The translations under genes were made by a program, and so were the position numbers. DNA of 64,000 bases from Escherichia phage HP3, in the sequence record NC_041919.1; one strand, given 5' to 3'. Shown here one piece after another: positions 3,506 to 38,137 of this stretch. Position 1 is the stretch's first letter, and each line of letters opens with the position of its first letter. Under the pieces are notes generated by a model. The model ran no database searches and was not told the DNA's origin. It worked only from the letters and a program-made list of their open reading frames with translations.

Positions 3506-4156
3506 TTAATAATAGCCGAAATCTTGAACAGAATCCTTAATTACGATTTGGTCAAATCGTGGAACGTGTGAAGGTTGAGATGCAGGATTCTGTGAAAAAA
3601 GGTTTGGCGCAGTTAAATTTCCTGTCATAGTGTCTCCAGAGCGTAATACCCTAGAGTTTGCATTTGCTGTAACAGTATTTATTGCTCCATCAACATAATC
3701 TTTGCGAGTAACATCAGATGCTGCGGAAGGAGTAGATGTAACAGTTACCGATGGAGCCGTTACAGCCCTGGTAAATGTTGTCAAACCTTCTGGCGTAATA
3801 GTAATTTGTCCAGTAGTGATTTCACTACCTGCTGGTCTAAAACTAATACCGCCAGAAGAGCCACCAACTACAAGAGTATTACCAGTGCCGCCACCAGAAC
3901 GAATTCGGATGGGGGTTTCATTATTACTTAATTGAAGATAACTATTTACCCCGTAATTAATAGTAATTGGACCGGTGTAAGTACCACCATTAGCTTTAGA
4001 AACGAAATCGTTATCAGCTGCCTGCGGTTTATTATATTCTGAATATATTTTAAATGATTTGTAGAGTACATCGTCACCGGCTGAATTCAATGGAAAATTT
4101 CCTTGATGCCAAATGACAGATCCACCTACAGTTGAACCTACTTTTAAATCAGCCAT
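3506..4156 (-). CDS. 36: gp36 long tail fibre distal connector
   Basis: 216 aa; [24 protein letters not shown]... and C-terminus ...[18 protein letters not shown] match T4 gp36; synteny 35-36-37. Confidence 0.9.
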
Positions 4157-4179
4157 TATATGCCCCTTTATTTTAATAT

Positions 4180-4187
4180 TATTTATA
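4180..4187 (-). promoter_or_regulatory. late promoter for gene 36
   Basis: TATAAATA on the minus strand 24 nt upstream of the gene 36 ATG, right after the gene 35 terminator. Confidence 0.6.
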
Positions 4188-4190
4188 AAG

Positions 4191-4213
4191 AAAAAGGGAA
4201 CCCGAAGGCTCCC
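4191..4213 (-). terminator. rho-independent terminator after gene 35
   Basis: Minus strand GGGAGCC-ttcg-GGTTCCC followed by TTTTTCTTT. Confidence 0.7.
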
Positions 4214-4218
4214 TCAGT

Positions 4219-5334
4219 TTAAACTTCTCTAAATTCTTGCCCAAACACTTTGCCAGTTTTAGAAGAGGCTTGTGTAGGAAGTACCATTATATCTGGAGGT
4301 GAAGCCGATTCGCAGACATAATTAACGCGAATACCGTTGACGCCAAATTCGGCAGGTTTTGAAATGCCGCCATTTCTTGATACTTCAGAAAAGCTTAAAT
4401 TTCTCATGCCGCCTTGACCTGCTTGGGCAGTTCTTTGTGCATATATCGTAAATCCTACTGCATTTTCAGGAACAACTACATAATCTTCTTTTAATTCCCA
4501 AGACCCAGCTTGCCCAGTAAACTCAGCTTGGGTCGAGGAAATATATCCATTTGATGCATCATAAAAACGAATAGATATATTTGTAGTTCCAAGATCAAGT
4601 AAATCAGCATCAGCATATAGTTGTGCTTTAAGATAAAGAACATCACCAGGAATTAAATTGTAGTCAGAAAGTTTACTTATAGCAGCTGAAGTTGGCAATC
4701 GCGCAATTTCATTATTAGTTCCTCCAACCGCAGACATAAATTGCTCAACGCTTTCGTATGTTCTTTTAGGAAATCCTGTAGCTCCGACGTCTTCTAAACT
4801 ATCAAATACAACATCTAAAATAGTTTGATAATCATCTGTGCTTTTTCTATTACTTAGTTTAACATGCTCTAATGCAATAGCTCTTTTAGAAGAAGTATAA
4901 AAAGCAGCATATGATACGTCAAATCTTGACAATACTGAATCTGATGGAAAAACTGAAGTTCCTGCTCCCCTTAACCAAGATACCACTTCAGGAGGAAAAT
5001 TAACCTTTCCGCTAGTTAATATAGCAGCAAGTCTATTGTTTGACAAAGAATTCATGAAACTGACAAAAGCAGCTGATGTAGTATTATTTGAAGCAGAAAA
5101 AGCATATGACTTGCTATCAACTAATGCTCCCGTAGAAGGGTCAAAAACTCTTAAATGAAGACCTGCACTAAATGTTTGATTTCCAACGGGATTATCCTGA
5201 AATTTAACATATGGCCCCGCAGTAGAAAGCGGGCAAGAACCCGCTATGCTTATTTTATATCTTACTGAATTGCTTTCCGATAAAAATGGCGTTTGGACAT
5301 ATCCTTGTCCAAACTCTGCCATAAATTTTTCCAT
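4219..5334 (-). CDS. 35: gp35 long tail fibre hinge (knee) protein
   Basis: 371 aa; MEKFMAEFGQGYVQTPFLSESNSVRYKISIAGSCPL... matches T4 gp35 (372 aa). Confidence 0.9.
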   Translation of the reverse strand: MEKFMAEFGQGYVQTPFLSESNSVRYKISIAGSCPLSTAGPYVKFQDNPVGNQTFSAGLHLRVFDPSTGALVDSKSYAFSASNNTTSAAFVSFMNSLSNNRLAAILTSGKVNFPPEVVSWLRGAGTSVFPSDSVLSRFDVSYAAFYTSSKRAIALEHVKLSNRKSTDDYQTILDVVFDSLEDVGATGFPKRTYESVEQFMSAVGGTNNEIARLPTSAAISKLSDYNLIPGDVLYLKAQLYADADLLDLGTTNISIRFYDASNGYISSTQAEFTGQAGSWELKEDYVVVPENAVGFTIYAQRTAQAGQGGMRNLSFSEVSRNGGISKPAEFGVNGIRVNYVCESASPPDIMVLPTQASSKTGKVFGQEFREV

Positions 5335-27981: not shown

Positions 27982-28011
27982 TAATTCATCTGTTAACAAA
28001 AAGGAAAAACG

Positions 28012-28347
28012 ATGTCTGAAGTACAACAGCTACCAATTCGTGCTGTCGGTGAATATGTTATTTTAGTTTCTGAACCTGCACAAGCCGGTGATGAAGAAGT
28101 TACAGAATCAGGACTTATTATCGGTAAACGTGTTCAAGGTGAAGTTCCTGAACTGTGTGTAGTTCACTCTGTCGGTCCTGATGTTCCTGAAGGTTTCTGT
28201 GAAGTTGGTGATTTGACTTCTCTTCCAGTTGGTCAAATTCGAAACGTTCCACACCCTTTTGTAGCTCTGGGTCTTAAGCAGCCAAAAGAAATTAAACAAA
28301 AATTCGTTACCTGTCACTATAAAGCTATTCCGTGTCTTTATAAGTGA
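28012..28347 (+). CDS. 31: gp31 co-chaperonin (GroES analogue for capsid folding)
   Basis: 111 aa; [40 protein letters not shown]... matches T4 gp31. Confidence 0.9.
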
Positions 28348-28494
28348 TATAAATAATAATATGAATTGGGTGTCGGAATAATAAGTTAACCGAACAATTC
28401 TATGTGGTAGTCTACAACTGAGAGATCTGTCGAAAGAAGATGAAATTCAGAAGAACGTGACTACCGAGTTTTAATCTCTAACGAGAATTTTTAA

Positions 28495-28743
28495 ATGATT
28501 AAACAATTACAACACGCTCTTGAACTGCAACGAAACGCATGGAATAATGGTCACGAAAACTATGGCGCATCTATTGATGTTGAAGCCGAAGCTCTTGAAA
28601 TCCTGCGTTATTTCAAACATCTGAATCCTGCTCAAACTGCATTAGCTGCTGAGCTTCAGGAAAAAGATGAACTTAAATATGCTAAGCCTCTGGCTTCTGC
28701 TGCACGAAAAGCAGTTCGTCACTTTGTGGTAACATTGAAGTAA
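28495..28743 (+). CDS. rIII: rIII lysis inhibition accessory protein
   Basis: 82 aa; MIKQLQHALELQRNAWNNGHENYGASIDVEAEALEILRYF... matches T4 RIII. Confidence 0.85.
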   Translation: MIKQLQHALELQRNAWNNGHENYGASIDVEAEALEILRYFKHLNPAQTALAAELQEKDELKYAKPLASAARKAVRHFVVTLK

Positions 28744-28987
28744 TTTATTGGAGATTCACTGCCTTAGTGTGAGCTAAATCGAGGAGCCGTCGAACTGTCT
28801 GATTAATGATTTGCGAATCATTATAGTTTTAAGACCCCGGCAGTTTTACGGTGTACCTCTTGAATGTGAATGATGACGGGTTTATGGTTATCCTGGTCGT
28901 TAAATATCCAAAAACCTATGTTCCCCTTGAGGGCTTGCGCAGGCAATGCCAATAAGTCCTGCATTTTCATTTAAAAGAGAATTTATA

Positions 28988-29164
28988 ATGGCAAAACAAG
29001 CTAAAGCAAAGAAAGCAGTTGAAAAGAAAGTTGGTGATTCTAAACGCGCTGGCTACAAGCGTGGGTCGAACTCTCGTATCAATCAAACTGTTGAGAAGAT
29101 CATGCGCCGAGCACGTGCGGTTCTTCGAGATGATGCTTCTCGTTTTGGTAAGCAGAAAGCATAA
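28988..29164 (+). CDS. hypothetical small basic protein
   Basis: 58 aa from ATG 28988 (ORF track starts at 28946); Lys/Arg-rich; followed by a strong terminator. Confidence 0.45.
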   Translation: MAKQAKAKKAVEKKVGDSKRAGYKRGSNSRINQTVEKIMRRARAVLRDDASRFGKQKA

Positions 29165-29169
29165 GTTGA

Positions 29170-29194
29170 GGACTCCTTCGGGAGTCCTTTTTTA
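29170..29194 (+). terminator. rho-independent terminator
   Basis: GGACTCC-ttcg-GGAGTCC hairpin followed by TTTTTTATTTT. Confidence 0.8.
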
Positions 29195-29207
29195 TTTTCC
29201 AAAGATT

Positions 29208-29240
29208 GCATAAAGTTGTTTACAGTATGGTTCCTTTGTG
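29208..29240 (+). promoter_or_regulatory. T4-type early promoter
   Basis: GTTTAC 29208-29213, 17 nt spacer, TGATAGTATTAT -10; imperfect inverted repeat CCTTTGTG...CACAAACAAAGG around it. Confidence 0.5.
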
Positions 29241-29274
29241 ATAGTATTATCTTACACAAACAAAGGAGAATAAA

Positions 29275-29607
29275 ATGAAAACGATTAATCTGAACGCTGC
29301 AGTTAAAACTAAATGCTTCAATGGTAAATATGATGAAACTATGTGGTTCTTAATGGCAGTTGAAGGTGATATTATTGAAGTAGAAACAACAGAAGGTATG
29401 GGAACAGATTTCACCTTTACAATTCAAGTTCATAATTTCTTTACTGGTTGGATTTATGAATTGAATACAGTAATCGTTGGAAAAATTGAACAAAATGAAT
29501 TAGGTGAATGGTATTATGTTACAGCTCGCCAACGTGCCGAACGCTTAATTGAGAAGATGAAAAAAGTTGGTAAACTTGATATGCAGCATTGGAAAGTAGT
29601 AAAATAA
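29275..29607 (+). CDS. hypothetical protein
   Basis: 110 aa; AAGGAG Shine-Dalgarno. Confidence 0.55.
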   Translation: MKTINLNAAVKTKCFNGKYDETMWFLMAVEGDIIEVETTEGMGTDFTFTIQVHNFFTGWIYELNTVIVGKIEQNELGEWYYVTARQRAERLIEKMKKVGKLDMQHWKVVK

Positions 29608-29609
29608 TT

Positions 29610-29648
29610 GTTTACTTTGGTACAGGATATGATATTATATACCTGTAC
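29610..29648 (+). promoter_or_regulatory. T4-type early promoter embedded in a perfect inverted repeat
   Basis: GTTTAC 29610-29615, 17 nt spacer, TGATATTAT -10; GGTACAGG and CCTGTACC bracket the -10. Confidence 0.5.
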
Positions 29649-29674
29649 CGCAATTAAACATCTTGGAGAATAAA

Positions 29675-30040
29675 ATGAACTACATCAACTTTGAACGTAA
29701 ATATGTTTCTAATGGTATTACAGGTTCTATTGATACCATCTGCCTTTGGAAACATCAAAATGGATCAGTATGCGAAATTGAACAGTACATGACTCCTAAT
29801 TACGTTTATATGCGATTTGAAAACGGTATCACGGTTTCAATCACGATGGAAGGTTCCAACTTTAAAATCGCTCTGGATGATGATTTCCGTGAACGCGATT
29901 TAGGGACTCATCCTTGCTGGAATGGCGTTAATCGCAAGCTTTTGGTTAAAACTTGGATTCGTCATATTCTGAGTAACAGAGCTAAACCTGAGCATCTTGA
30001 AGCAATCTTTGATGTAGTTCTTAACGAATTTGATATTTAA
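29675..30040 (+). CDS. hypothetical protein
   Basis: 121 aa from ATG 29675 with GGAG upstream (ORF track starts at TTG 29663). Confidence 0.5.
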   Translation: MNYINFERKYVSNGITGSIDTICLWKHQNGSVCEIEQYMTPNYVYMRFENGITVSITMEGSNFKIALDDDFRERDLGTHPCWNGVNRKLLVKTWIRHILSNRAKPEHLEAIFDVVLNEFDI

Positions 30041-30080
30041 AATAAATGAGGGGCTTTGGCCCCTTACTGAGGAAAATGTT

Positions 30081-30368
30081 ATGTTTATGACCACTTATTT
30101 TGATACTCGTAAAAACTTCTGCGAAGTAGTTTTCTCAAAGGCGCCTAAAGACCTTCCTGCACATTTGCAGCCTACTAGCGAATCGATTAAAAACTACGTT
30201 GATGTGGTTTGTCCTTTAGAGTTTCGTACTGTAAATGGGCGCGATACTTTAGCTATCACTAAACTCAATCGTGAAATTGACATTGACCCCTCAATTGCAC
30301 GTGAAATTAATAGTTCTGATATTAATGGCGGTAATGTTAAATCGCACGGTTTTCAGATGAGGTTTTAA
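30081..30368 (+). CDS. hypothetical protein
   Basis: 95 aa from ATG 30081 with GAGG upstream; ORF-track start 30030 lies before a GGGGC-tttg-GCCCC hairpin. Confidence 0.45.
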   Translation: MFMTTYFDTRKNFCEVVFSKAPKDLPAHLQPTSESIKNYVDVVCPLEFRTVNGRDTLAITKLNREIDIDPSIAREINSSDINGGNVKSHGFQMRF

Positions 30369-30565
30369 TGAAATTCTTTTTAGGTCAAACTGTTGAATTA
30401 AAGGGAGTTGGTATACCTGGATTAATTTCTAAGGTTCTACCTCCGTTTAAATGGAGTGGTATTCAAATAAAAGAGGCTTATATTGTTTTCTGGGTAGATG
30501 GAAATGAAGACCTTCGTATGGGTGATGAATTATCTCCTATCTACGGATTAAAGGAAATAGTATGA
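30368..30565 (+). CDS. hypothetical protein
   Basis: 65 aa, start overlaps previous stop. Confidence 0.45.
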   Translation: MKFFLGQTVELKGVGIPGLISKVLPPFKWSGIQIKEAYIVFWVDGNEDLRMGDELSPIYGLKEIV

Positions 30566-30768
30566 ATATAATTAATAAGATTTTTGGAATTCAGTACATT
30601 AAGGTCACATATAAAGTAACAGATAAAAATCCGTATACTGATGAACATGAAGAACCGCAAGTTGAGTCTATTATATTAGAAAAGGACCCTAACTGGCCAG
30701 TTGAATTTCGTCTTCCTTGCTATGGTCATTGGGCTGATGTTGAAATTATAAGCATTGAAAATGTCTGA
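30562..30768 (+). CDS. hypothetical protein
   Basis: 68 aa. Confidence 0.45.
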   Translation: MNIINKIFGIQYIKVTYKVTDKNPYTDEHEEPQVESIILEKDPNWPVEFRLPCYGHWADVEIISIENV

Positions 30769-31219
30769 GTTAGAGATTAGAAGCAATTTTAGGTGGCCAT
30801 CATGTGCATTAAGTAATTTCGCCCATTGGCCTTTCGTTATGGATGGCATTCAATTTGGAGGTCTTGAAGGATTCCTCCAAGGATGCAAGGTGAAAAACGT
30901 TGAACAACAACGTCGTATATTTGGGTTATCCGGGCTTGCCGCTCAACAAGCTGGAAGGTCTTATGCAAGAGCTCAGGACCGTGGGACCCTCTTCTGGCTT
31001 GGAGTTCCATTTTCAAGATACTCCCCGGCGTGGAAAGAATTATACACAAATGCATATTTTGAAGCAGCGATCCAAAACAAGGGCTTCCGTGATGCATTAC
31101 AAGCCTCGAAAGGAAAAGTTTTGAAGCACAGCATGGCTAGTGGTCTAACAAAAGATGATACAATACTAACCGAAGCTGAATTTATTGATGTGTTAAACCT
31201 ATTAAGAGACTCTCTATGA
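30761..31219 (+). CDS. NADAR / YbiA-like (DUF1768) domain protein, candidate ADP-ribose N-glycosidase
   Basis: 152 aa from ATG 30761; LSNFAHWPFVMDGIQFGGLEGFLQGCKV aligns by eye with E. coli YbiA FSNFAAWPIKVDGKTWPTSEHYFQAQKF, including the Glu position. Confidence 0.5.
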   Translation: MSELEIRSNFRWPSCALSNFAHWPFVMDGIQFGGLEGFLQGCKVKNVEQQRRIFGLSGLAAQQAGRSYARAQDRGTLFWLGVPFSRYSPAWKELYTNAYFEAAIQNKGFRDALQASKGKVLKHSMASGLTKDDTILTEAEFIDVLNLLRDSL

Positions 31220-32055
31220 AGCCTACTATTTTAACTGATATTGATGGAGTATGTTTAAGCTGGCAATCAGGCCTTCCTTATTTTGCTCAGAAATATAATC
31301 TTCCGTTAGAACATATTTTAAAAATGATCCAGGATGAGAAATTTATTTCTCCTGGTAAACTCTTTAATTGTGACGAAGAACTTGGCGTTAAGCTAATTGA
31401 AAAATACAATCGTTCAGATTTTATTCGTTACTTGTCTCCATATAAAGATGCTCTGTGTGTAATTAACAAATTAAAAGAAGATTATAATTTTGTAGCTGTT
31501 ACAGCATTGGGTGATTCTATTGACGCTCTGCTGAATCGTCAATTTAATTTGAACGCTCTTTTTCCTGGTGCCTTCTCAGAAGTACTGATGTGTGGTCATG
31601 ATTCTTCAAAAGAAGAGTTGTTCAAAAAGGCAAAAGAGAAATATAACGTAATTTGTTATATTGACGATCTCGCTCACCATTGCGATCATGCGAGTGAAAT
31701 ATTAAATGTTCCTGTTTATTGGATGGCTCGAGGGGAGCGTGACAATATTCCAAAAACTGCTCAGCGAGTTTATACATGGAATGATGTAGAGAATAAGATT
31801 TTTTCGCCGAAGGAAAATAAAGAAAGTTTTGATCGTGAAAAAGCTATAAAAGATGCAATCGAGAAGATGATTAAAAACGATTCTTTTCCTTGGAACACTA
31901 CCTGGAGAACGCCTGGATTTAATCCTTATAATCATCTATATCATCCATATCAGACACATCCGTTTCAGACATGGAACTATATTAAACCTGGTGGCATAGA
32001 GTATTTGTATAATAGACCTACTAGTGGTGATAATATTTTCCAAGGAGCATTCTAA
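31216..32055 (+). CDS. HAD-like hydrolase / nucleotidase candidate
   Basis: 279 aa; N-terminal LTDIDGV resembles HAD motif I (DxDG); a later ICYIDD could be motif IV. Confidence 0.4.
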   Translation: MKPTILTDIDGVCLSWQSGLPYFAQKYNLPLEHILKMIQDEKFISPGKLFNCDEELGVKLIEKYNRSDFIRYLSPYKDALCVINKLKEDYNFVAVTALGDSIDALLNRQFNLNALFPGAFSEVLMCGHDSSKEELFKKAKEKYNVICYIDDLAHHCDHASEILNVPVYWMARGERDNIPKTAQRVYTWNDVENKIFSPKENKESFDREKAIKDAIEKMIKNDSFPWNTTWRTPGFNPYNHLYHPYQTHPFQTWNYIKPGGIEYLYNRPTSGDNIFQGAF

Positions 32056-32321
32056 TGTTTGTTGTTCACACTATTTATGAAAATGAAGGTAATACTACAC
32101 GTGATTACGGTCACGTAAATCAATTTTTTAGATGCAATCCAGAATTCCGAGCTCAAAAAGACGAACGAATTTTTAAAAAATGTGTAGAGCAAGGTTTCAT
32201 TTACGTCAAGCACTGGATGCAAGGAAATAAAGTTAGAACCACATATCATAAGTCTTTGACTGAGCTTAATGATGAATTGATTTATAATAGAGCTGTAAAC
32301 CAAACTCTGAAGGATGAATAA
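32055..32321 (+). CDS. hypothetical protein
   Basis: 88 aa, coupled between neighbours. Confidence 0.5.
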   Translation: MFVVHTIYENEGNTTRDYGHVNQFFRCNPEFRAQKDERIFKKCVEQGFIYVKHWMQGNKVRTTYHKSLTELNDELIYNRAVNQTLKDE

Positions 32322-33784
32322 TGATTCTTAAAATTCTGAACGAAATAGCATCTATTGGTTCAACTAAGCAGAAGCAAGCAATTCTTGAAAAGAATAAAGA
32401 TAATGAATTGCTTAAACGAGTATATCGTCTGACTTATTCTCGTGGGTTACAGTATTATATCAAGAAATGGCCTAAACCGGGTATTGCTACCCAGAGTTTT
32501 GGAATGTTGACTCTTACCGATATGCTTGACTTCATTGAATTCACGTTAGCTACTCGGAAATTGACTGGAAATGCTGCAATTGAGGAATTAACTGGATATA
32601 TTACTGACGGTAAAAAAGATGATGTTGAAGTTTTGCGTCGGGTGATGATGCGAGACCTTGAATGCGGTGCTTCAGTATCTATTGCAAACAAAGTTTGGCC
32701 AGGTTTAATTCCTGAACAACCTCAAATGCTTGCAAGTTCTTATGATGAAAAAGGCATTAATAAGAATATCAAATTTCCAGCCTTTGCCCAGTTAAAAGCT
32801 GATGGAGCTCGGTGTTTTGCTGAAGTTAGAGGTGATGAATTAGATGATGTTCGTCTTTTATCACGAGCTGGTAATGAATATCTAGGATTAGATCTTCTTA
32901 AGGAAGAGTTAATCAAAATGACTGCAGAAGCTCGCCAGATTCATCCAGAAGGTGTGTTAATTGATGGCGAATTGGTATACCATGAGCAAGTTGAAAAGGA
33001 GCCAGAAGGCCTAGATTTTCTTTTTGATGCTTATCCTGAAATTAGTAAAGCTAAAGAATTCGCCGAAGTAGCTGAATCACGTACTGCATCTAATGGCATC
33101 GCCAATAAATCTTTAAAGGGAACCATTTCTGAAAAAGAAGCACAATGCATGAAGTTTCAGGTCTGGGATTATGTCCCGTTGGTAGAAATATACGGTCTTC
33201 CTGCATTTCGTTTGAAATATGATGTACGTTTTTCTAAACTAGAACAAATGACATCAGGCTATGATAAAGTAATTTTAATTGAAAACCAGGTAGTAAATAA
33301 CCTAGATGAAGCTAAGGTAATTTATAAAAAGTATATTGACCAAGGTCTTGAAGGTATTATTCTCAAAAATATCGATGGATTATGGGAAAATGCTCGTTCA
33401 AAAAATCTTTATAAATTTAAAGAAGTAATTGATGTTGATTTAAAAATTGTAGGAATTTATCCTCACCGTAAAGACCCTACTAAAGCGGGTGGATTTATTC
33501 TTGAATCAGAGTGTGGAAAAATTAAGGTAAATGCTGGTTCAGGCTTAAAAGACAAAGCCGGCGTAAAATCGCATGAACTTGACCGTACTCGCATTATGGA
33601 AAACCAAAATTATTATATTGGAAAAATTCTAGAGTGCGAATGCAACGGTTGGTTAAAATCTGATGGCCGCACTGATTACGTTAAATTATTTCTTCCGATT
33701 GCGATTCGTTTACGTGAAGATAAAACTAAAGCTAATACATTCGAGGATGTATTTGGTGATTTTCATGAGGTAACTGGTTTATGA
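32321..33784 (+). CDS. 30: ATP-dependent DNA ligase
   Basis: 487 aa, same length as T4 DNA ligase; MILKILNEIASIGSTKQKQAILEKNKDNELLKRVYRLTYSRGLQYYIKKW...; KADGAR adenylation motif. Confidence 0.95.
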   Translation: MILKILNEIASIGSTKQKQAILEKNKDNELLKRVYRLTYSRGLQYYIKKWPKPGIATQSFGMLTLTDMLDFIEFTLATRKLTGNAAIEELTGYITDGKKDDVEVLRRVMMRDLECGASVSIANKVWPGLIPEQPQMLASSYDEKGINKNIKFPAFAQLKADGARCFAEVRGDELDDVRLLSRAGNEYLGLDLLKEELIKMTAEARQIHPEGVLIDGELVYHEQVEKEPEGLDFLFDAYPEISKAKEFAEVAESRTASNGIANKSLKGTISEKEAQCMKFQVWDYVPLVEIYGLPAFRLKYDVRFSKLEQMTSGYDKVILIENQVVNNLDEAKVIYKKYIDQGLEGIILKNIDGLWENARSKNLYKFKEVIDVDLKIVGIYPHRKDPTKAGGFILESECGKIKVNAGSGLKDKAGVKSHELDRTRIMENQNYYIGKILECECNGWLKSDGRTDYVKLFLPIAIRLREDKTKANTFEDVFGDFHEVTGL

Positions 33785-33969
33785 AAGCTTACTTAGAAAC
33801 AATTGTCATTGCTCAAAAAGAAGGTGGAGATGTTTCTACTTCTGTATCACAAGTCATTCTCGAATTTGTAGATGCATACGCTTATAATAAATTTACAGAA
33901 ACATTTGATGCCTATGAAAAAGGACCAAAGTTTGAAATATATCGTACTCTCTTACCACTAGATTACTAA
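33781..33969 (+). CDS. hypothetical protein
   Basis: 62 aa, overlaps ligase stop. Confidence 0.45.
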   Translation: MKAYLETIVIAQKEGGDVSTSVSQVILEFVDAYAYNKFTETFDAYEKGPKFEIYRTLLPLDY

Positions 33970-33985
33970 AGGCCTTCGGGCCTTT
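33968..33985 (+). terminator. rho-independent terminator
   Basis: AAAGGCC-ttcg-GGCCTTT hairpin with T-rich tail. Confidence 0.55.
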
Positions 33986-33990
33986 AATTT

Positions 33991-33998
33991 TATAAATA
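33991..33998 (+). promoter_or_regulatory. late promoter for alt
   Basis: Exact TATAAATA, 24 nt upstream of the alt ATG, with GAGAGG Shine-Dalgarno between. Confidence 0.65.
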
Positions 33999-34021
33999 GA
34001 ATAAACACTAGAGAGGCTATG

Positions 34022-36076
34022 ATGGAACTTATTACAGAATTATTTGACGAAGATACTACTCTTCCGATTACAAACTTAAATCCAAAGAAGAAAATACCGC
34101 AAATTTTTTCAGTTCATGTTGATGATGCAATTGAACAACCAGGCTTTCGTTTATGTACCTATACATCTGGAGGTGATACTAATCGCGATTTAAAAATGGG
34201 CGATAAAATGATGCATATTGTTCCTTTTACATTAACTGCTAAAGGTTCAATTGCTAAATTAAAAGGTCTTGGTCCAAGCCCAATTAATTATATCAATTCA
34301 GTTTTTACTGTTGCAATGCAAACAATGCGTCAGTATAAAATTGATGCTTGTATGCTTCGTATTCTTAAGTCTAAAACCGCTGGTCAAGCTCGACAAATTC
34401 AAGTTATTGCTGATAGACTTATCCGTAGTCGTTCAGGTGGCAGATACGTCCTTCTTAAGGAACTCTGGGATTATGATAAAAAGTATGCATATATTCTTAT
34501 ACATCGCAAAAATGTATCACTAGAAGACATTCCAGGAGTTCCGGAAATTAGTACCGAGCTCTTTACTAAAGTTGAATCGAAGGTCGGTGATGTTTATATC
34601 AATAAAGATACCGGAGCTCAAGTAACCAAAAATGAGGCAATTGCAGCATCTATTGCACAAGAAAATGATAAACGTTCTGACCAAGCTGTAATCGTTAAAG
34701 TTAAAATTTCCCGTAGAGCAATTGCACAAAGTCAGTCATTGGAATCTTCTAGATTTGAAACACCGATGTTTCAAAAATTTGAGGCTTCAGCGGCAGAATT
34801 AAATAAACCAGCGGACGCGCCTTTAATTTCTGATTCTAATGAATTAACGGTAATTTCTACTTCAGGATTTGCACTAGAGAATGCTCTTAGCAGTGTTACA
34901 GCTGGGATGGCATTCAGAGAAGCTTCTATAATTCCTGAAGATAAAGAATCCATTATTAATGCAGAAATAAAAAATAAAGCTTTAGAAAAATTACGAAAAG
35001 AATCTATTACTTCAATAAAAACTTTAGAAACTATTGCTTCTATCGTCGATGATACTTTAGAAAAATATAAAGGTGCTTGGTTTGAAAGAAATATTAACAA
35101 ACATTCGCATTTAAATCAAGATGCTGCGAATGAGTTAGTACAAAATTCTTGGAATGCAATAAAAACAAAGATTATTCGAAGAGAATTGCGTGGATATGCT
35201 CTTACCGCTGGATGGTCACTACATCCTATAGTCGAAAATAAAGATTCATCTAAATACACACCAGCACAAAAACGCGGAATTCGTGAATACGTAGGTTCAG
35301 GATATGTAGACATAAATAATGCTCTTTTGGGATTATATAATCCAGATGAGCGTACAAGTATTTTGACAGCATCTGACATAGAAAAAGCTATTGATAATTT
35401 AGATTCAGCCTTTAAAAATGGTGATCGATTGCCAAAAGGTATTACTTTATATCGTTCACAGCGAATGTTACCTTCAATATATGAAGCATTGGTAAAAAAT
35501 CGAGTTTTTTATTTTAGAAATTTTGTATCAACATCATTATATCCAAACATTTTTGGTACTTGGATGACTGATTCAGCTGTTGGTGTTTTACCAGATGAAA
35601 AGCGTCTAAACATTTCTATCGATAAAAATGATGAAGGGCTTGTTAATTCTAGCGATAATTTAGTCGGAATTGGATGGGTTATTACTGGGGCTGATAAAGT
35701 CAATGTTGTTTTACCCGGTGGAAGTTTAGCGCCTTCAAATGAAATGGAAGTTATTTTGCCACGTGGATTAATGGTCAAAGTTAATAAAATAACTGATGCA
35801 TCTTACAATGATGGAACAGTTAAAACTAACAACAAGCTTATTCAAGCTGAAGTTATGACCACGGAAGAGCTCACCGAATCGGTAATCTATGACGGAGACC
35901 ATTTAATGGAAACTGGTGAATTGGTTGCAATGACAGGTGATATTGAAGTAGAAGACAGAGTTGACTTTGCATCATTTGTTTCATCAAATGTTAAACAGAA
36001 AGTAGAATCATCTCTTGGAATTATTGCGTCTTGTATAGATATTGCAAACATGCCTTACAAGTTCGTTCAAGGATAA
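34022..36076 (+). CDS. alt: Alt ADP-ribosyltransferase (capsid-packaged, injected)
   Basis: 684 aa from second ATG; MELITELFDEDTTLPITNL...; C-terminal motifs LYRSQR, FVSTSLYP, EVILPRG consistent with an R-S-E catalytic triad. Confidence 0.9.
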   Translation: MELITELFDEDTTLPITNLNPKKKIPQIFSVHVDDAIEQPGFRLCTYTSGGDTNRDLKMGDKMMHIVPFTLTAKGSIAKLKGLGPSPINYINSVFTVAMQTMRQYKIDACMLRILKSKTAGQARQIQVIADRLIRSRSGGRYVLLKELWDYDKKYAYILIHRKNVSLEDIPGVPEISTELFTKVESKVGDVYINKDTGAQVTKNEAIAASIAQENDKRSDQAVIVKVKISRRAIAQSQSLESSRFETPMFQKFEASAAELNKPADAPLISDSNELTVISTSGFALENALSSVTAGMAFREASIIPEDKESIINAEIKNKALEKLRKESITSIKTLETIASIVDDTLEKYKGAWFERNINKHSHLNQDAANELVQNSWNAIKTKIIRRELRGYALTAGWSLHPIVENKDSSKYTPAQKRGIREYVGSGYVDINNALLGLYNPDERTSILTASDIEKAIDNLDSAFKNGDRLPKGITLYRSQRMLPSIYEALVKNRVFYFRNFVSTSLYPNIFGTWMTDSAVGVLPDEKRLNISIDKNDEGLVNSSDNLVGIGWVITGADKVNVVLPGGSLAPSNEMEVILPRGLMVKVNKITDASYNDGTVKTNNKLIQAEVMTTEELTESVIYDGDHLMETGELVAMTGDIEVEDRVDFASFVSSNVKQKVESSLGIIASCIDIANMPYKFVQG

Positions 36077-36079
36077 ATC

Positions 36080-38137
36080 ATGGAACTTATTACAGAATTA
36101 TTTGACGGCGCTTCGGCGCCGGTTGTTAACTTAAATCCTAAGCATAAAATACCACAAATTTTTGCTATTCAAGCCGGCGAAGAAAGCGTGCTTCCTGGAT
36201 TTAGATTTTGTACATACACCTCTGGTGGTGATACGAATAAAAACGTTAAGCCAGGCGATAAAATGATGCATATCGTAATGATAGGTGTTAATGAGAAACT
36301 ATCATTAGTTAAGCTTAAAAACTTGGGTGGAAATCCAATTGGTGTCATTAATGCCGTTTTTGATACTGCTCTTCAAACAATGAAACAGTATAAAATCGAC
36401 GCATGCCTATTCCGCGTACTAAAAAGTAAAACAAATGGCGCAGCTCGTCAAATGCAAGTTATTGCTGACCGTTTAGTACGTACTAAAGGAGCAGGTCGAT
36501 ATGTTCTTTTAAAGGAAATCTGGGACTATGATAAGAAATATGCATATATTATGGTTTACCGTAAAAATGCCAATTTAGAAGACATTCCAGGTGTACCTCC
36601 TATTTCAACTGAGTTATTCACAAAAGTTGAATCAAAGGTCGGTGATGTTTATGTAGACGTTAAAACAGGAAATGCTGTTCCTAAAGCTGTTGCTGTTGCT
36701 GCTTCTATTGCTTTAGAAAATGATAAGCGCACGGACCAAGCTGTTATTCAGAAAACTAAAATTAGTCGTCGATTAGCAGCACAAGCTCAATATTCTACTG
36801 TTGATGCTTCACTTCAGGGTGATAGCTTCGCTGCTAAGAAATATCAAGAGTTTGAATCTAAAGTTCCGGTATATAAAGCAGAAGGACCAATGAACTCTGG
36901 CGTTATTCAGATTGGTTCAAACTTCAGCAAAGGAGCTATCGGTGGTATGAGAAGTGCTTCTCGTTTTAAATCTAACGATTATGAACTAGAAAGCTTCCGA
37001 AATCATATTGCATTAGCCCATGCACGTTTACGTGATCCATCTATCAAGTTGCAGAGCGATATAACATATCAAGGTTCTCAAGAATATTTAAAGAATAAAG
37101 AATTCTTTGATTATAAAACTGATAAAATTTTAAGCGATCTTGCTGATATTAATATTTCTAATAGCTTTGATGTTATTAAGAAAATTATTAATGATTTAGT
37201 TAAAGGTTCTAAAACCACACCAGATGAAAAGACAGCTATTATTCAATTTGTAATGAATGGCATTTATAAATTGATTAATGAATCTGCTGCCCAGGCATAT
37301 GAATACGCAAGCACCGAAGTAGCTCCAAAAGGACTGACTCAGGCTGAATCTGATGTAATTGAAGATTATTGTGCAGATTCATATGTTGAAATGAACTCGT
37401 TCCTTTTGGGTAAACCAGATTCTACCCGTGAAGAATACATGGAACGAGCTATTAAGCACATCGAGACGTTAGATTCTGCCTTTGCCAAAGGATCAGTTCT
37501 TCCTCCAGGAACTACACTTTACCGTGGGCAAGAAGTTACCTTTAAAACTTTGCGTCATAACATTGAAAATAAAATGTTCTATTTCAAGAACTTCGTATCC
37601 ACATCGCTTAAACCAAATATCTTCGGTGAGCATGGTAAAAACTATATGGCTCTAGATGATTCCGGCGCAGTATTTTCTGGTGAAGGAGAAGGTTCCGTTG
37701 ATGCAGAAGATTTGATGCATATGGGTAGTCATTCTACATATGCTAATGAAGATGCAGAAACTAGCGTGGGTATGGTAATTAAAGGAGCTGAGCGAATCAA
37801 AGTTATCGTTCCAGGTCATTTATCAGGATTTCCATCAGAAGCTGAAGTTATTCTACCACGTGGAATTTTACTGAAGATTAATAAAGTAAGTACGTACTTT
37901 ATGAAAGAAACTGCTTATAACAAGTATCTAATCGAAGGTACAATCGTTCCTCCTTCTGAACAATTAGAAGAATCAGTATATGATGGAGACCATCTAATGG
38001 AAACTGGTGAAGTTCGTCCAATGGCTGGATTTAATCAATTCCTTGTAGAAGAATCAAAAGAAGAGGAAAATGAAGTTTCTCAAATCTTGACTTCTTTGGT
38101 TAACATCAACGGAATGTCTAAAAAGTTCAAAATGTAG
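36080..38137 (+). CDS. second Alt-like ADP-ribosyltransferase paralog
   Basis: 685 aa; N-terminal ~220 aa closely similar to Alt (MELITELFDGASAPVVNL...), divergent middle, conserved C-terminal motifs LYRGQE, FVSTSLKP, EVILPRG; starts 4 nt after alt stop. Confidence 0.8.
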   Translation: MELITELFDGASAPVVNLNPKHKIPQIFAIQAGEESVLPGFRFCTYTSGGDTNKNVKPGDKMMHIVMIGVNEKLSLVKLKNLGGNPIGVINAVFDTALQTMKQYKIDACLFRVLKSKTNGAARQMQVIADRLVRTKGAGRYVLLKEIWDYDKKYAYIMVYRKNANLEDIPGVPPISTELFTKVESKVGDVYVDVKTGNAVPKAVAVAASIALENDKRTDQAVIQKTKISRRLAAQAQYSTVDASLQGDSFAAKKYQEFESKVPVYKAEGPMNSGVIQIGSNFSKGAIGGMRSASRFKSNDYELESFRNHIALAHARLRDPSIKLQSDITYQGSQEYLKNKEFFDYKTDKILSDLADINISNSFDVIKKIINDLVKGSKTTPDEKTAIIQFVMNGIYKLINESAAQAYEYASTEVAPKGLTQAESDVIEDYCADSYVEMNSFLLGKPDSTREEYMERAIKHIETLDSAFAKGSVLPPGTTLYRGQEVTFKTLRHNIENKMFYFKNFVSTSLKPNIFGEHGKNYMALDDSGAVFSGEGEGSVDAEDLMHMGSHSTYANEDAETSVGMVIKGAERIKVIVPGHLSGFPSEAEVILPRGILLKINKVSTYFMKETAYNKYLIEGTIVPPSEQLEESVYDGDHLMETGEVRPMAGFNQFLVEESKEEENEVSQILTSLVNINGMSKKFKM

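Follow-up and report, generated by a model that had tools for sequence, protein, structure and literature searches.

Gene 30.3 and its surroundings

The window, that is the whole stretch of 64,000 nucleotides from Escherichia phage HP3 that was analysed (NC_041919.1), comes from a Tequatrovirus. On its plus strand, gene 30.3 (adfN) runs from an ATG at 30761 to a TGA at 31217-31219 (30761..31219 including the stop) and encodes a 152-residue protein whose putative function, that of a phage-type NADAR ADP-ribosylglycohydrolase, is assigned from the T4 orthologue. The program-made listing of open reading frames starts the gene at an in-frame TTG at 30755; the T4 annotation agrees with the ATG at 30761. 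The stop codon of the upstream gene 30.4 (30562..30768, plus strand, 68 residues, phrog_2042) overlaps the 30.3 start (ATGTCTGA), and the 30.3 stop overlaps the ATG of the downstream gene 30.2 (31216..32055, plus strand) within the tetranucleotide ATGA. These overlapping starts and stops indicate close packing of the three genes and, probably, translational coupling among them. The gene order, 30.4, 30.3, 30.2, 30.1, gene 30 (ligase), alt.1 and alt, is that of T4.

Over the interval 30368-32321, identity is 100% with Escherichia phage HP3.1 and 95-99% with about 390 other T4-like phages. The 30.3 product is identical to T4 gp30.3 (NP_049816) at 150 of 152 positions (99%), the two differences being Q22H and I125M, and it also shares 150 of 152 residues with the T2 allele, with which it has M125 in common. 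In an alignment of 58 homologues, residue 22 is a variable position of the gp30.3 family, whose consensus has Met at 125; the allele with His22 is present unchanged in other phages. The HP3 and T4 genes differ by 12 nucleotides, 10 of which are synonymous in the 30.3 frame, an indication of purifying selection on this frame. Both sequence and position thus identify the gene as the orthologue of T4 30.3. A 100%-identical protein in GenBank record MZ502379.1 is labelled "NADAR domain containing protein", and its neighbour "putative phosphatase".

Homologues of gp30.3 were found by tblastn in 1509 of 50,697 phage records, mostly Straboviridae infecting Escherichia, Klebsiella, Shigella, Aeromonas, Acinetobacter and Vibrio. 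This distribution fits the published statement that NADARs of the gp30.3 clade are characteristic of the T4 superfamily (PMC11825919). Genes of this family also occur in large tRNA gene clusters: in that of Klebsiella phage KaAlpha, a Karamvirus (positions 4001-4450 of locus L013), and in that of Ralstonia phage RSP15, a member of the Ackermannviridae (positions 3995-4513 of locus L015). Both genes lie far from the ligase and alt context, a placement that could be incidental or could hint at an RNA-related substrate.

Several other features of the region deserve mention. The internal out-of-frame gene 30.3' of T4, which overlaps 30.3, corresponds to 30897-31124 (plus strand) in HP3, where its ATG has become ACG and only a TTG one codon later remains. 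All seven nucleotide differences from T4 change an amino acid or the start codon of 30.3' and all seven are synonymous in the 30.3 frame; 30.3' therefore seems free of constraint and is unlikely to be a real conserved gene. Three minus-strand reading frames overlapping 30.3 (30676-30849, 30837-31097 and 30973-31134) received no support and were rejected. An Rfam scan of 28000-34500 on both strands gave no match inside the 30.3 reading frame, and the counts of promoter-like and terminator-like signals were at the level of shuffled sequence. Further upstream, the segment 29120-29203 (plus strand) contains a strong terminator-like hairpin (29168-29189, GAGGACTCCTTCGGGAGTCCTT followed by a T run) after a 72-residue ORF. 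An Rfam match to the Atu_C8 sRNA overlaps this hairpin but stays below threshold, with 31 bits where the gathering score is 50, and probably reflects nothing more than the hairpin itself.

Downstream, two tandem paralogues encode Alt-type ADP-ribosyltransferases (34019-36076 and 36080-38137, plus strand) of 685 residues each, which are 41% identical to each other. A tandem pair of full-length alt genes is also present in T2; T4 has one alt together with the decayed fragments alt.-1 and alt.-2.

When 30690-31390 is compared with RB69 (locus L017), nucleotide identity is highest (92-95%) over the 3' half of 30.3 and on into the beginning of 30.2, and is only about 50% in the 3' part of 30.2 as well as in 30.4; the ligase protein is 63% identical. 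The region is a local mosaic patch, which suggests either that Mosigvirus and Tequatrovirus lineages recently exchanged the adfN region or that constraint is unusually strong.

Relationship to the NADAR superfamily

The gene had been singled out in an earlier note, made from the sequence alone, as NADAR or YbiA-like on the strength of one motif. The peptide concerned, LSNFAHWPFVMDGIQFGGLEGFLQGCKV, comprises residues 17-44 of the 30.3 product and its resemblance to YbiA exceeds chance; the YbiA string with which it had been compared is indeed correct and corresponds to residues 29-56 of the E. coli K-12 protein. A pairwise BLASTP comparison aligns residues 17-70 of the 30.3 product with residues 29-83 of YbiA (33% identity over 57 residues, E=1e-5). 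A family profile built from the 58 gp30.3 sequences aligns with YbiA over 90 columns in hhalign (probability 93%, E=3e-7). When the same profile is compared with all PDB sequences, YbiA (2b3w) is the top match (E=0.005), on the very motif of the earlier note.

Searches with the single sequence behave differently. The 30.3 protein matches PF08010 (Phage_30_3, E=7e-70) and gives no match to PF08719 (NADAR/DUF1768) in the Pfam scan even at E<=1. Neither NCBIfam nor PADLOC yielded a NADAR or DarG match for the protein, and phmmer against the PDB returned a chance match only, with no NADAR among its results. Profile and fold methods are therefore needed to place the protein. The lack of a significant DUF1768 hit, which the earlier note had named as counting against its own reading, is thus real for the single sequence but is overruled by the profile and fold evidence. 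Indeed, PF08719 is matched by 21 of the 58 gp30.3 homologues (best E=1.5e-7), and several metagenomic members of the family are labelled DUF1768 by JGI. The AlphaFold model of the 30.3 product, predicted from an alignment that left out the T4 row, has a pLDDT of 92.7 and a pTM of 0.88.

Profile and fold evidence together support the assignment of the 30.3 product to the NADAR superfamily, as a protein with a predicted single-domain NADAR fold. Judged by its residues, it is not a member of the YbiA family in the narrow sense, since the Glu of the last strand is replaced by His, the signature of the phage gp30.3 subfamily.

Active-site residues and the C-terminal helix

The NADAR pair of a Glu followed seven residues later by a Lys (E88/K95 in the E. 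coli C7 NADAR) is found in the 30.3 product as E36/K43. Glu36 (codon GAA, 30866..30868, plus strand), the conserved NADAR catalytic Glu, is invariant in the 58 homologues and aligns with E48 of YbiA; Lys43 (codon AAG, 30887..30889, plus strand), the conserved ADP-ribose-binding Lys, is kept in at least 90% of them and aligns with YbiA K55. The Glu and Trp positions to which the earlier note had drawn attention thus fare unequally: the Glu is retained and the Trp is not conserved, W23 aligning with YbiA W35 at a position where the gp30.3 family consensus is His. The third residue, His123 (codon CAC, 31127..31129, plus strand), is likewise invariant in the 58 homologues and lies within a predicted strand (residues 120-123), the last beta strand of the model. 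It falls in the column that follows the last one matched by hhalign, opposite E125 of YbiA. A His in place of the YbiA Glu or DarG1 Asp of the last strand has been described as the signature of the phage NADAR subfamily (PMC11125620, PMC11543638).

In T4 AdfN, the substitution E36A impairs function in vivo and abolishes ADP-ribose removal in vitro, and K43A also impairs the protein, although rescue in plaque assays is lost only partly with either substitution (PMC11825919). A helix predicted at residues 138-151 (31172..31213, plus strand) closes the protein. In T4 it is needed for full activity, a truncated allele showing reduced activity, and the natural RB69 allele is frameshifted and has lost the last 15 residues (PMC11825919). 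The tblastn match to RB69 30.3 accordingly stops at residue 137, whereas the HP3 gene keeps the helix.

Comparison with characterized NADAR proteins

T4 AdfN and the HP3 protein have in common their length, genomic position, overlapping start and stop codons, residues E36, K43 and H123 and the C-terminal helix, and differ only by Q22H and I125M. The NADAR antitoxins of the DarG1 type (the BC4488 family, the E. coli C7 NADAR and the Geobacter lovleyi NADAR, 8bat) differ in several respects. DarG1 is encoded in an operon with DarT1, whereas HP3 30.3 is an orphan flanked by the counterparts of T4 30.4 and 30.2, with no adjacent DarT1 gene; PADLOC gave no match for either 30.3 or 30.2. DarG1 carries a catalytic Asp in the last strand (D171 in the E. 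coli C7 NADAR) where HP3 30.3 has His123. Moreover, HP3 30.3 consists of the core domain only (152 residues) and lacks the additional N-terminal helix and beta elements of DarG1. Unlike DarG1, T4 gp30.3 cannot serve as an antitoxin in uninfected cells.

E. coli YbiA (2b3w) is about 20% identical to the HP3 protein, with Glu125 at the position of His123. It is encoded on the chromosome, in the ybiA-dinG region, and has a role as N-glycosidase of riboflavin intermediates; like T4 gp30.3, it fails to rescue cells from DarT1 in vivo (PMC11125620). Two further orphan phage NADARs, AdfN-Bas32 and AdfN-Bas60, from T5-like phages and Vequintavirinae, resemble the T4 type in countering DarTG1 and in being guanine-specific. 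They nevertheless belong to other NADAR clades, were acquired independently and work without T-even infection (PMC11825919).

The neighbouring gene 30.2

The reading frame adjoining 30.3 at 31216-32055 had been called HAD-like in the earlier note, a view borne out by a DxDG motif at residues 8-11, a DD pair at residues 150-151 and both profile and Foldseek matches. In the family alignment D8, D10 and G11 are invariant and D150 and D151 near-invariant. The 279-residue product thus shows the hallmarks of the HAD superfamily, a Rossmann-like fold with an N-terminal DxD and a C-terminal DD, and may be described as a putative phosphatase resembling 5'(3')-deoxyribonucleotidases. The family profile matches the mouse 5'(3')-deoxyribonucleotidase (2jao, E=0.01). 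The structural model is confident over the first ~220 residues, where 10-residue blocks, those of residues 1-190 in particular, mostly have a pLDDT above 90; with this model Foldseek gives 98 matches at E<=0.001, including HAD hydrolases and deoxyribonucleotidases at E of about 1e-7 to 1e-8. The best 50 of the 98 matches are all HAD-fold proteins or designs built on them, and the lowest rmsd among the matches listed belongs to deoxyribonucleotidases. Residues 226-235 and 239-279 are predicted to be disordered; this C-terminal tail of some 50 residues differs in length among homologues. A Pfam scan of the protein gave no match, Pfam having no model for the 30.2 family, and comparison with the phosphatase domain of the PseT protein of the window gave no significant similarity, with only a weak PHROG link.

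Local tblastn comparisons find 30.3 next to 30.2 in T4, T2, RB69, a 58%-identical relative and Acinetobacter phage ZZ1, but not in KVP40, Phi1, KaAlpha, RSP15 or two metagenomic phage lineages; in jumbo-phage and other metagenomic contigs, the genes adjoining 30.3 are unrelated to 30.2. As the two genes are adjacent in some lineages only, the proposal that 30.2 is an obligate partner of gp30.3-family genes was rejected.

Function of AdfN in T4 and its probable role in HP3

NADAR proteins are established as guanine-ADP-ribose hydrolases and as antitoxins of DarT1 (Schuller et al. 2023, PMC11543638). T4 gp30.3 hydrolyses guanosine-ADP-ribose in vitro and leaves thymidine-ADP-ribose intact (2024, PMC11125620). 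The methods of that study describe an "E. coli T4 phage NADAR (gp30.3)" construct of residues 1-208, whereas T4 gp30.3 has 152 residues. Resistance of T-even phages to DarTG1 was subsequently mapped to the 3' part of 30.3, and the T4 gene was renamed adfN, for anti-DarT factor NADAR (Johannesman et al., Nat Commun 2025, PMC11825919). In the same study, T4 and T2 without adfN formed no plaques on DarTG1 hosts, ectopic supply of adfN-T4 rescued RB69, and purified AdfN, though not its E36A variant, stripped ADP-ribose off DNA modified by DarT1. No two-hybrid interaction between AdfN and DarT1 was detected, and DarTG2 was unaffected by AdfN (PMC11825919). Removal of cytidine-ADP-ribose is listed only for the NADAR and YbiA families (2026, PMC12945103), and the phage family therefore appears to be guanine-specific.

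Gene, fold, catalytic residues, biochemistry and phenotype are thus already known in full from the T4 gene. The counter-defence role proposed in the earlier note, reversal of guanine ADP-ribosylation of the DarT type, has been demonstrated experimentally for the 99%-identical T4 AdfN (PMC11825919, PMC11125620). HP3 30.3, the adfN orthologue, very probably encodes a NADAR-fold glycohydrolase countering DarTG1. The HP3 allele is, with high confidence, inferred to be a working AdfN: the protein is 99% identical to that of T4, with E36, K43, H123 and the C-terminal helix intact, M125 is found in the functional T2 allele, and H22 falls at a variable position of the family.

As the Tequatrovirus orthologue of T4 30.3, the protein would act as a minimal, single-domain NADAR-fold ADP-ribosylglycohydrolase. 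In a host carrying the toxin-antitoxin defence DarTG1, the DarT1 toxin places ADP-ribose on N2 of guanine in phage DNA and blocks replication. AdfN would then hydrolyse the N-glycosidic link of the distal ribose to guanine, which would return the DNA to its unmodified state and let replication go on. Its target would be the modified DNA, with no binding of the toxin, and it would not be expected to undo the ADP-ribosylation of thymidine by DarT2.

Some observations on T4 suggest a further element. Uninfected E. coli is not rescued from DarT1 by T4 gp30.3/AdfN, and rescue of T5 and Bas25 by T4 AdfN is weak (PMC11125620, PMC11825919), so that simple glycohydrolase action may not be the whole story; full function of the T4-type protein is seen only during T-even infection (PMC11825919). 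T4-type AdfN might depend on another T-even gene product, and gp30.2 could be this partner or work in the same pathway. If so, gp30.2 might, for instance, act on the ribose-phosphate that is released, or bring AdfN to phage DNA undergoing replication. Several lineages, however, have 30.3 and 30.2 apart, which makes linkage weak evidence for a partnership, and this proposal is considered improbable. Gene 30.2 is best described as a neighbour of 30.3 with at most a putative role in the mechanism.

Alternative roles

The proximity of 30.3 to alt raises the question of self-protection, in which the protein would clear nucleic acid, of phage or host, of ADP-ribose added collaterally by the phage's own injected or early ADP-ribosyltransferases Alt, ModA and ModB. 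At a distance of 2.8 kb downstream there are two full-length alt paralogues (34019-38137), the arrangement of 30.3, ligase and alt recurs in distant relatives (locus L008 and Acinetobacter phage ZZ1), and T4-like NADARs are expressed early together with ADP-ribosyltransferases according to Iyer et al. (PMC9503650). KVP40, KaAlpha, RSP15 and the jumbo-phage contigs have nevertheless lost the alt linkage. Alt and ModA transfer ADP-ribose specifically to arginine residues of proteins, and ModB in addition joins NAD-capped RNA to host proteins; none of the three is known to modify guanine. The sole phenotype reported for adfN deletion, in T4 and T2, is the failure to plaque on DarTG1 hosts as compared with empty-vector hosts. 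Self-protection, which the earlier note had offered as an alternative, is thus left unsupported, with the closeness of alt as its main argument, and is very unlikely to be the function of the gene.

It has also been proposed that the main targets of phage NADARs are soluble ADP-ribose derivatives (Iyer et al., PMC9503650), and the HP3 protein might accordingly act on soluble ADP-ribose-derived immune signals, or on guanosine-ADP-ribose in RNA or tRNA, in place of DNA adducts. Guanosine-ADP-ribose is removed from RNA in vitro by all NADAR families, including that of T4 (PMC12945103), and the presence of gp30.3-family genes inside the tRNA clusters of KaAlpha and RSP15 points in the same direction. 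Such clusters are, however, general small-ORF regions of large phages, so that the linkage may be incidental; no soluble substrate has been demonstrated, and the DarTG1 phenotype together with the DNA de-ADP-ribosylation assay directly explains the selective value of the gene. That non-DNA targets should be the main ones seems as slim a prospect as self-protection, and action on soluble ADP-ribose or RNA may instead be a second activity, which is not needed to explain the gene. Still less probable, to the point of being negligible, is a housekeeping role as a YbiA-type N-glycosidase of riboflavin-pathway intermediates. All 58 gp30.3 homologues carry His where YbiA has the last-strand Glu, the family has been placed closest to DarG1-like NADARs (PMC11825919), and riboflavin damage control is not an obvious requirement of a phage.

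Significance

Work since 2024-2025 has given AdfN its name and tested it in mutated and purified form; HP3 therefore adds only another near-identical allele. The practical use of the result lies in annotation. In GenBank the label of 30.3 is "hypothetical protein" in most of the matches listed, and because Pfam places the protein in PF08010 and not in NADAR, an automated search for DUF1768 would miss the gene. The case illustrates that a real counter-defence enzyme can be picked out by close reading of the bare sequence.
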